In this document: piece after piece, positions 11,634 to 13,042 of the stretch
Numbering within the stretch: the first letter of the stretch is position 1
Layout of the letters: the number at the start of each line of letters is the position of its first letter
DNA from: a virus
Taxonomy: Duplodnaviria > Heunggongvirae > Uroviricota > Caudoviricetes
Reading direction: 5' to 3' (one strand)
IMG/VR virus record: IMGVR_UViG_2585427782_000003
Span: 1-13,042 of that record
Length of the DNA stretch: 13,042 nucleotides
Position numbers and translations under genes: made by a program
The notes under the pieces: generated by a model
What the model saw: the letters and a program-made list of their open reading frames with translations, nothing else
Database searches by the model: none
What the model was told of the DNA's origin: nothing

Positions 11634-12101
11634 ATGAACCGCGTACTGTGCGTGGTCATCATTGCCCTGCTGGTGGCCTGTGGTGCGCTTAGTCTGGGGC
11701 TGAATCATTACCGTGATAACGCCATAACCTACAAAGAGCAGCGCGATAAAAAAGTCAGTGAGCTGGAGCAGGCAAATGCAACCATTACTGATATGCAGCA
11801 GCGCCAGCGTGATGTTGCTGCACTTGATGCCAGATACTCGAGGGAATTAGCCGATGCGAGAGCTGAAAATGAAACTCTGCGCGCTGACGTTGCCGCTGGT
11901 CGTAAGCGCCTGCGGATCAACGCCACCTGCCCCGGTACCGTGCGTGAAGCCCCCACCACCTCCGGCGTGGATAATGCAACCGGCCCCCGACTGGCAGACA
12001 CCGCTGAACGGGATTATTTCACTCTCAGAGAGCGGTTGATGCTGACGCAGAAGCAGCTGGAAGTGGCGCAGGAATATATCCGCACTCAGTGCCTGAAATA
12101 A
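11634..12101 (+). CDS. Rz: Rz i-spanin (inner-membrane spanin subunit)
   Basis: 155-aa ORF with N-terminal TMD and strong similarity to lambda Rz as recalled (NHYRDNAITYK, RQRDVAALDA, ADTAERDYFTLRERL). Confidence 0.9.
   Translation: MNRVLCVVIIALLVACGALSLGLNHYRDNAITYKEQRDKKVSELEQANATITDMQQRQRDVAALDARYSRELADARAENETLRADVAAGRKRLRINATCPGTVREAPTTSGVDNATGPRLADTAERDYFTLRERLMLTQKQLEVAQEYIRTQCLK
11854..12039 (+). CDS. Rz1: Rz1 o-spanin (outer-membrane lipoprotein), embedded in the +1 frame of Rz
   Basis: 61-aa ORF with lipobox LVVSAC and the proline-rich CVKPPPPPAWIMQP...WQTPLNGIIS segment characteristic of lambda Rz1. Confidence 0.85.
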   Translation: MRELKMKLCALTLPLVVSACGSTPPAPVPCVKPPPPPAWIMQPAPDWQTPLNGIISLSESG

Positions 12102-12195
12102 GTTTTGCTGATGCGCGGTATTGTCGCCGTATCCCCGCATTAACAGAGACCGCAGCCCGACCGGGAGACTCCTCTGCGCGAGTGTGCGGGGATAA

Positions 12196-13042
12196 TCAAA
12201 AACGATACACACCGGGGTTTCTGCAGCAAAAACCTCTGAAACAAATGCAAAGACTTCAGCAGATAATGCTGCTTCCTCTAAGGCGGCAGCCGCATCGTCA
12301 GCCAGTTCAGCGGCGTCATCGGCATCATCTGCGTCTGCTTCAAAAGATGAGGCGACCAGACAAGCGTCAGCAGCGAAAGGTAGTGCCACGACAGCAACAA
12401 TGAAAGCATCAGAGGCAGCTGGTAGTGTGACGGCGGCAGCTCAGAGCAAAAGTACGGCGGAATCCGCGGCAACGCGCGCCGAGACAGCAGCAAAACGGGC
12501 AGAGGATATTGCATCCGCCGTGGCGCTGGAGGATGCGAGCACGACGAAAAAGGGGATAGTACAGCTCAGCAGTGCGACCAACAGCACTTCCGAGTCACTG
12601 GCGGCAACGCCAAAAGCGGTTAAGGCGGTAATGGGTGAAACGAACAAGAAAGCGCCCTTAAATAGTCCTGCACTGACCGGAACGCCAACAACACCAACTG
12701 CGCGACAGGGAACGAATAATACCCAAATCGCAAGCACGGCTTATGTTATGGCTGCGATCGCTGCCCTCGTGGACTCGTCGCCTGACGCACTGAATACGCT
12801 GAACGAGCTGGCTGCGGCGTTGGGCAACGACCCGAATTTTGCGACCACCATGACTAACGCGCTTGCGGGTAAGCAACCGAAAGATGCCACCCTGACGGCG
12901 CTGGCCGGGCTTGCTACTGCGGCAGACAGGTTTCCGTATTTTACGGGGAATGATGTTGCCAGTCTGGCAACCCTGACAAAAGTTGGGCGGGATATTCTTG
13001 CGAAATCGACCGTTGCCGCCGTTATCGAATACCTCGGTTTAC
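12196..13042 (+). CDS. stf: Side tail fibre protein, internal portion; 5'-truncated (likely pseudogene or fragment), continues past window end
   Basis: Open frame from the in-frame TAA at 12193-12195 to the window end with no ATG/GTG/TTG before 12400; translation is Ala/Ser/Thr-rich then KKGIVQLSSATNSTSESLAATPKAVKAVM...DALNTLNELAAALGNDPNFATTMTNALAGKQPK...DILAKSTVAAVIEYLGL, matching the conserved region of lambdoid Stf proteins as recalled. Confidence 0.75.

Follow-up and report, generated by a model that had tools for sequence, protein, structure and literature searches.

Loss of the morphogenesis module between Rz and stf in a probable defective lambdoid prophage of Escherichia coli

Gene content of the window

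The stretch of DNA analyzed here (the window) comprises the 13,042 nucleotides of IMG/VR virus record IMGVR_UViG_2585427782_000003. It begins inside a prophage and ends inside a truncated side tail-fiber gene ('stf), and neither end of the element lies within it. The late region is collinear with those of Stx and lambdoid phages and contains, in this order, the gene of the antiterminator Q (4548-5369; Pfam Antiterm), a block of cargo genes, and the holin, endolysin, and Rz/Rz1 genes, followed directly by 'stf. The features on which our analysis is based are as follows.

10187..10402, plus strand: class II holin S, 71 aa, with a longer open reading frame (ORF) that begins at 10109 (Pfam Phage_holin_2_1, E 2e-32)
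10802..11335, plus strand: endolysin R, a lysozyme of 177 aa (Pfam Phage_lysozyme, E 1e-23)
11634..12101, plus strand: Rz i-spanin, 155 aa, intact (Pfam Phage_lysis, E 4e-48)
11854..12039, plus strand: Rz1 o-spanin, embedded in Rz in the +1 frame, with a lipobox-like LVVSAC in its translation
12102..12220, plus strand: Rz-to-cos intergenic remnant of 119 nt, left flank of the deletion, at the end of which (12220) the alignments all stop
12219..12220, no strand: deletion junction, defined by the end of left homology at 12220 and the start of right homology at 12219, with a 2-bp TT microhomology
12220..13042, plus strand: 5'-truncated side tail-fiber gene 'stf, codons 356-629 of a 941-codon gene, running off the window end (tblastn; Pfam Phage_fiber_2)
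12400..12402, plus strand: first in-frame start codon, an ATG corresponding to Met416 of Stf (frame scan), at which gene callers begin a 526-aa 'phage tail protein'
13022..13042, plus strand: left crossover site of an invertible tail-fiber C-terminal segment (TTATCGAATACCTCGGTTTAC) at the window end, recognized from the inversion between loci L010 and L003

The 71-aa holin product agrees in length and position with the genes called in relatives, and Pfam places a YdfR/DUF1327 gene upstream of Rz along with the holin and lysozyme genes. Given these three genes and the Rz/Rz1 pair that follows them, the lysis cassette is complete. Rz ends at 12101, as the first-pass annotation of this DNA had it, and the exact Rz protein is also found in prophages with a full head module. 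As in other two-component spanins, Rz (PF03245) is accompanied by an embedded, out-of-frame lipoprotein gene, and the homologous Rz1 gene call in another locus (L019) carries PF06085 Rz1. Within the late operon, a terminator-like hairpin with a 14-bp stem (11426-11458) lies between the endolysin and Rz genes, and is followed by a small conserved ORF of 45 aa (11495-11632). No terminator is predicted between Rz and 'stf.

The left part of the window has its own history of loss. Its first 222 nt carry the gene of the DicF sRNA (130-181, minus strand), which is located downstream of dicB in relatives, and this segment adjoins an IS5 element extending from 223 to ~1417 (transposase 369-1349, minus strand). 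Compared with locus L031, where the same IS5 is present as a simple insertion, 3.7 kb is missing beside IS5 in the window, and in L031 this DNA encodes a repressor, a cro-like gene, YdaT, a replication initiator, and DUF977. The immunity and replication region was thus lost through a separate IS5-adjacent deletion. It had been claimed that the element keeps regulatory, cargo, and lysis genes. The lysis genes are indeed present, whereas regulation is represented by Q only, the repressor, cro, and replication genes having gone with the DNA next to IS5.

The cargo includes a homolog of the epoxyqueuosine reductase QueH (1594-2280; Pfam E 1e-65), situated between DUF977 and hok. Within the assembly collection, 9,174 blocks list the exact QueH protein, and in all 10 of the places shown it occupies the same lambdoid-prophage slot. 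Further cargo consists of hok/sok (2348-2673), three tRNA genes (7043-7292; one with a CAT anticodon that is annotated as Ile in relatives, Arg-TCG, and Arg-TCT), the sRNA STnc100 (7369-7558), and the anti-adaptor gene iraM on the minus strand (7584-7919). A NanS-like SASA esterase gene (8165-10036) lies downstream of the tRNA and iraM genes. Cargo of this kind is typical of Stx-phage-like late regions.

Beyond Rz, the final stop codon in the stf frame is the TAA at 12193-12195, and a frame scan found no ATG, GTG, or TTG in this frame between 12195 and 12400. The first-pass annotation described an Ala/Ser-rich tail-fiber frame that is open by about 12200 and start-less until 12400, followed by a conserved Stf segment up to the window end. 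Our results agree with this description on each point: the frame opens at 12196, and 12196-13041 matches both Phage_fiber_2 (E 2e-18) and Stf residues 356-629. The encoded protein is 100% identical by tblastn to these residues of the intact 941-aa Stf of E. coli MLI114, and at the nucleotide level this part of the window is 99.9% identical to stf of several E. coli genomes. In contrast to lambda-type Stf, the remnant has no translatable full-length ORF with its own start and no PF08400 N-terminal domain. This domain corresponds to residues 1-134 of MLI114 Stf and is absent from the window and from two further loci that carry the same junction (L004 and L010), in none of which does tblastn find a match to residues 1-355. 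What has been retained is the Phage_fiber_2 repeat and the C-terminal receptor-binding part with its Tfa chaperone, for which gp37_C and Caudo_TAP are found downstream of 'stf in L010, past the window end. We considered that an intact Stf N-terminus might be hidden by a frameshift, and rejected this idea given that residues 1-355 are unmatched anywhere in the window and that the upstream DNA is Rz-downstream sequence.

The C-terminal part of the tail-fiber gene belongs to a 3.1-kb invertible segment. Positions 11383-14501 of L010 are inverted relative to positions 33417-36535 of L003 (E. coli EC21Z-101), with overlaps of ~27 bp at both ends, and the orientation in L010 and L004 is opposite to that in EC21Z-101. 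The invertase gene adjoining the segment is truncated in all relatives examined, and therefore the inversion is either old or catalyzed in trans.

The junction and the missing genes

When bases 11600-13042 are compared by megablast with 50,697 phage records and 5,426 complete RefSeq E. coli genomes, the query falls into two parts. Bases 11600-12220 correspond to Rz and the downstream region of Stx and other lambdoid phages, bases 12219-13042 correspond to the interior of genes annotated as 'prophage tail fiber N-terminal domain-containing protein' (identity up to 99.9%), and no record in either collection spans both sides of the join. Since the homologies of both flanks have BLAST E-values of 0, chance is of no concern. 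In a three-way alignment and in pairwise BLAST comparisons with five relatives, all left alignments stop at 12220 and all right alignments begin at 12219. The deletion join is thereby mapped at base level to 12219/12220, with 2 bp (TT) common to both parental sequences, and both flanks are collinear with intact relatives right up to this point. The collinear flanks, together with the module missing between them, bear out the earlier proposal that an internal deletion joins Rz-downstream DNA to a start-less stf. The bracket of about 12102-12215 that had been given for the junction was slightly off, the join lying ~5 nt further right and still within the wider interval of 12040-12260.

The left breakpoint is thus separated from the Rz stop codon by 119 nt. 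This short segment is 100% identical to L005 (a locus with a lambda-like head module) and to L003, 97% identical to the corresponding DNA of MLI114 and of ST131 strain 4/1-1, and 93% identical to that of an Stx2a phage (L001). The right breakpoint falls at nucleotide 1065 of the 2,826-nt stf gene, that is, at codon 355/356 of 941 with MLI114 as the reference. Alignment at the junction revealed no longer homology, no IS end, and no site-specific or recombinase site, with TT alone in common, and short repeats near the junction occur at chance level only. The event was most likely one of illegitimate, rather than homologous or site-specific, recombination. The conserved DNA that follows Rz contains a perfect 10-bp inverted repeat (TATCCCCGCA at 12130-12139 and TGCGGGGATA at 12185-12194), which lies 25 nt to the left of the breakpoint. 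We dropped the idea that a hairpin formed by this repeat promoted the deletion, as the predicted fold of 12102-12230 is ordinary (z -1.3). We also regard as spurious a chimeric 104-aa ORF that runs over the junction (12089-12403), which has no Pfam match and is missing from the protein collection.

The size of the loss can be read from members of the same prophage family. The DNA between the two breakpoints amounts to 22.3-24.9 kb in intact relatives integrated at ompW and is far shorter in EC21Z-101:

E. coli MLI114 (L013): 22,286 bp between breakpoints, full morphogenesis module
E. coli ST131 strain 4/1-1 (L014): 24,873 bp between breakpoints, full module plus an ISEc12 insertion
E. coli EC21Z-101 (L003): 4,526 bp between breakpoints, small terminase already fused to J

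In the intact relatives, this interval contains ynfO, an HNH gene, both terminase subunits, and the genes of the capsid, portal, connectors, tail tube, tape measure, and tip proteins, followed by J, lom, and the 5' part of stf. This accords with the first-pass view that intact lambdoid genomes hold roughly 20 kb of terminase, portal, head, and tail genes between Rz and stf and that the element is a cryptic prophage from which this module was removed by a large internal deletion. L005 is 100% identical to the window across the last 321 nt before the junction, and it contains, 135 nt past the left breakpoint, an exact copy of a 12-mer that we take to be the lambda cohesive end (cosN). Given this position, cos was lost as well.

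Homologs of the deleted segment were searched for with tblastx in the window and in three junction-bearing loci (L034, L035, and L036). With low-complexity masking there was no match, and without masking the only similarity was that of Ala/Ser-rich repeats within stf; the positive control gave 33 matches. Within 10 kb on either side of the junction in GenBank record CP050200.1, we likewise found neither structural genes nor Stf residues 1-355. We therefore reject, for the window and for these flanks, the possibility that the structural genes have been relocated nearby in a rearranged prophage.

Origin of the junction and fate of the remnant

The same junction is present in five other assemblies. 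One is an IMG/VR contig (L004; IMG 2585427790) that has 4 mismatches to the window in 6,142 nt, and another is GenBank CP050200.1 (L010/L034), which is 100% identical to it across 5.6 kb. The remaining three (L035, L036, and L037) are metagenome assemblies from ENA, the ENA accessions being ERZ27287510, ERZ28648222, and ERZ28615053. All five loci are identical to the window over 11957-13042, and to the left of 11957 they differ from it in clustered patches of SNPs, with 0-42 differences per locus. Such patches are the usual mosaic signature of lambdoid prophages. Two further loci with a 526-aa gene call (L038 and L039) were rejected as carriers of the deletion, these calls being contig-end fragments of intact stf. 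The exact 27-nt junction string has no match in GTDB species representative genomes or in JGI metagenomes, and the junction occurs in 0 of the 5,426 complete RefSeq E. coli genomes. This last absence is what one would cite if a contig had falsely joined the Rz region to stf, and nothing specific argues for such an artifact. The 2 bp common to both sides could not have misled an assembler, and the recurrence of the junction in five other assemblies of varied source and differing background identifies it as a heritable rare allele. The probability of an artifact is therefore negligible, and the junction is a real but rare allele. CP050200.1 and CP050199.1 (L018 and L021) are themselves GenBank 'chromosomes' of 5.8-5.9 Mb, neither of which is in the RefSeq complete-genome set. 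They carry the lysis cassette beside plasmid-type genes (a relaxase and an HMW1C/EtpC-like glycosyltransferase), IS66, IS1, and a group II intron, an arrangement that is due either to extensive IS-driven rearrangement or to a fault in the assembly.

Based on these findings, we favor the hypothesis, to which we assign a probability of about 0.93, that the window derives from a defective lambdoid prophage of E. coli in which one deletion, from the DNA downstream of Rz to stf codon 355/356, removed cos, the genes from terminase to lom, and the Stf N-terminus. Illegitimate, microhomology-mediated recombination at 2 bp would have joined a point 119 nt past the Rz stop codon to the interior of stf. 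Lost with the deleted DNA were cos, the two terminase genes, the genes of the portal, capsid, and tail, J, lom, and stf codons 1-355. The holin, endolysin, and Rz/Rz1 genes have stayed intact. Such an element is expected to produce no virions and to yield no inducible particles, and a helper that is specific for cos should not be able to package it.

Whether the loss took place at once is less certain. The ancestor could have been an EC21Z-like prophage in which small terminase had already been fused to J (nu1'^'J), in which case cos, nu1', 'J, lom, and the 5' portion of stf would have been lost in a second deletion, of 4.5 kb, at 12219/12220. EC21Z-101, with its mere 4,526 bp between the breakpoints, differs from the window by 1 SNP in 7025-12220 and by 1 SNP in 12219-13042, which speaks for this route. 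However, L005 has the same left-flank SNP profile with an intact lambda-like head module, such that an intact ancestor is equally compatible with the data, and no intermediate was found in a junction-bearing lineage. We therefore consider a two-step decay possible and somewhat doubtful. A single event of ~22-25 kb and a later deletion in an intermediate resembling EC21Z would both lead to the same end state. It is much harder to envisage that the junction arose between prophages, as the endpoint of a larger deletion or inversion that joined Rz-downstream DNA to the stf gene of another prophage. E. coli genomes do contain several lambdoid prophages with similar stf genes (a median of 3 matching places per genome), and the CP050199 and CP050200 records exhibit heavy IS-linked rearrangement around the lysis cassette. 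Yet the closest relatives have both flanks in one ompW prophage, in the same orientation and almost free of SNPs relative to the window, and in L010 the collinearity with this prophage extends past 'stf across tfa and the invertible segment. We thus deem a rearrangement of this kind very improbable.

The deletion, on our preferred reading, left 'stf as what is probably a pseudogene remnant, in which Met416 is the first possible start and a good ribosome-binding site is lacking. Judged from its sequence, 'stf is at best poorly translated from Met416; some translation may take place given that a 526-aa product is annotated. The product would be without the domain that anchors the fiber to the tail. 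A more elaborate proposal is that Stf residues 416-941 and Tfa form a functional module kept by selection, that is, a free receptor-binding protein expressed from the late operon. In L010, the ORF from Met416 is open over 526 codons; it lies directly behind an intact Q-dependent lysis operon with no terminator predicted in between, and its protein is annotated by gene callers and by NCBI (P0001; cluster members such as WP_313727640.1). The open frame, however, is readily explained by the near-identity of the remnant to intact stf, which indicates a recent deletion. The ATG at 12400 has no Shine-Dalgarno-like sequence at the usual distance, and the allele is rare. Furthermore, the remnant in L004 is broken by an IS end, an IS3-family insertion (~6742), which argues that it is not under strong selection. 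Selective retention consequently strikes us as most unlikely.

A related and speculative notion is that 'stf/tfa and the invertible cassette serve as a free, switchable receptor-binding decoy or adhesin, or else that the element persists because it supplies superinfecting lambdoid phages with a host-range cassette. If the former were true, late-operon activation would cause the cell to release a switchable receptor-binding protein, encoded by the 526 codons of 'stf from Met416. We give this notion very little credence. Simple recombination is another matter: stf/tfa of the Qin and Rac prophages recombine with infecting lambda at about 2e-6 (PMC3945230), and the remnant stf/tfa DNA downstream of the late operon could plausibly act as a substrate and donor for recombination with incoming lambdoid phages.

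Comparison with known systems

The consequences are largely ones of annotation. The deletion accounts for the 526-aa 'phage tail protein' annotated beside Rz in a few E. coli assemblies, and this gene deserves a pseudogene flag. Similarly, prophage predictors ought to score the element as defective. Past annotation the case has little significance, and it provides a base-level view of a known kind of prophage decay.

The tail-fiber remnant itself is related to lambda Stf/Tfa and to systems with a Gin/Pin/Cin-type invertible C-terminal segment, as indicated by the Phage_fiber_2 repeat, gp37_C, the inverted 27-bp crossover sites, and downstream Caudo_TAP chaperones in both orientations. It differs from lambda Stf in that the PF08400 N-terminal domain and ~220 Ala/Ser-rich shaft residues are missing, and the invertase is truncated in relatives.

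The closest counterparts of the element belong to the family of ompW-integrated prophages that includes those of EC21Z-101 (NZ_CP101240.1), MLI114, and ST131 4/1-1. The prophage of EC21Z-101 has Q, a methylase, tRNA, IraM, the NanS-like esterase, and the lysis cassette in the same order. It differs in that its small terminase is fused to J and that cos, lom, and the stf N-terminus are kept, whereas MLI114 and 4/1-1 keep the whole morphogenesis module. Independent decay alleles occur within this family, namely the small terminase-J fusion of EC21Z (nu1'^'J; L003 28456-30737), a fusion of the SASA esterase to Rz (nanS^Rz; L031 16675-18002), and the IS3-family insertion in 'stf of L004.

The element also corresponds to the defective lambdoid prophages Qin and DLP12. 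The late-region order from Q through Rz/Rz1 is that of this type, terminase, portal, capsid, and tail genes are absent in comparison with intact relatives, and the breakpoints lie inside sequences that are continuous in those relatives, with one gene truncated. The likeness to Qin is especially close. In E. coli K-12, the order in Qin is essQ-ydfR-rrrQ-rzpQ/rzoQ ... nohA-stfQ-tfaQ-pinQ. Both elements keep Q, holin, YdfR, lysozyme, and Rz/Rz1, both have lost all head and tail genes by internal deletion, and in both an stf gene lacking its 5' end survives together with tfa and an invertase region. The fusion junction in Qin is marked by a 50-nt overlap between nohA and stfQ. Its left breakpoint is within nohA, the small terminase gene, and cold-shock genes and other morons are found between Rz and nohA. 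In the window, the left breakpoint is upstream of cos, and therefore, unlike in Qin, there is no terminase remnant. The right breakpoint falls earlier in stf, leaving 586 codons as opposed to 320 in Qin, and there is no nucleotide similarity to stfQ within the window. The deletion described here is thus an instance of ordinary prophage decay, of a kind already known from Qin and DLP12 of K-12.
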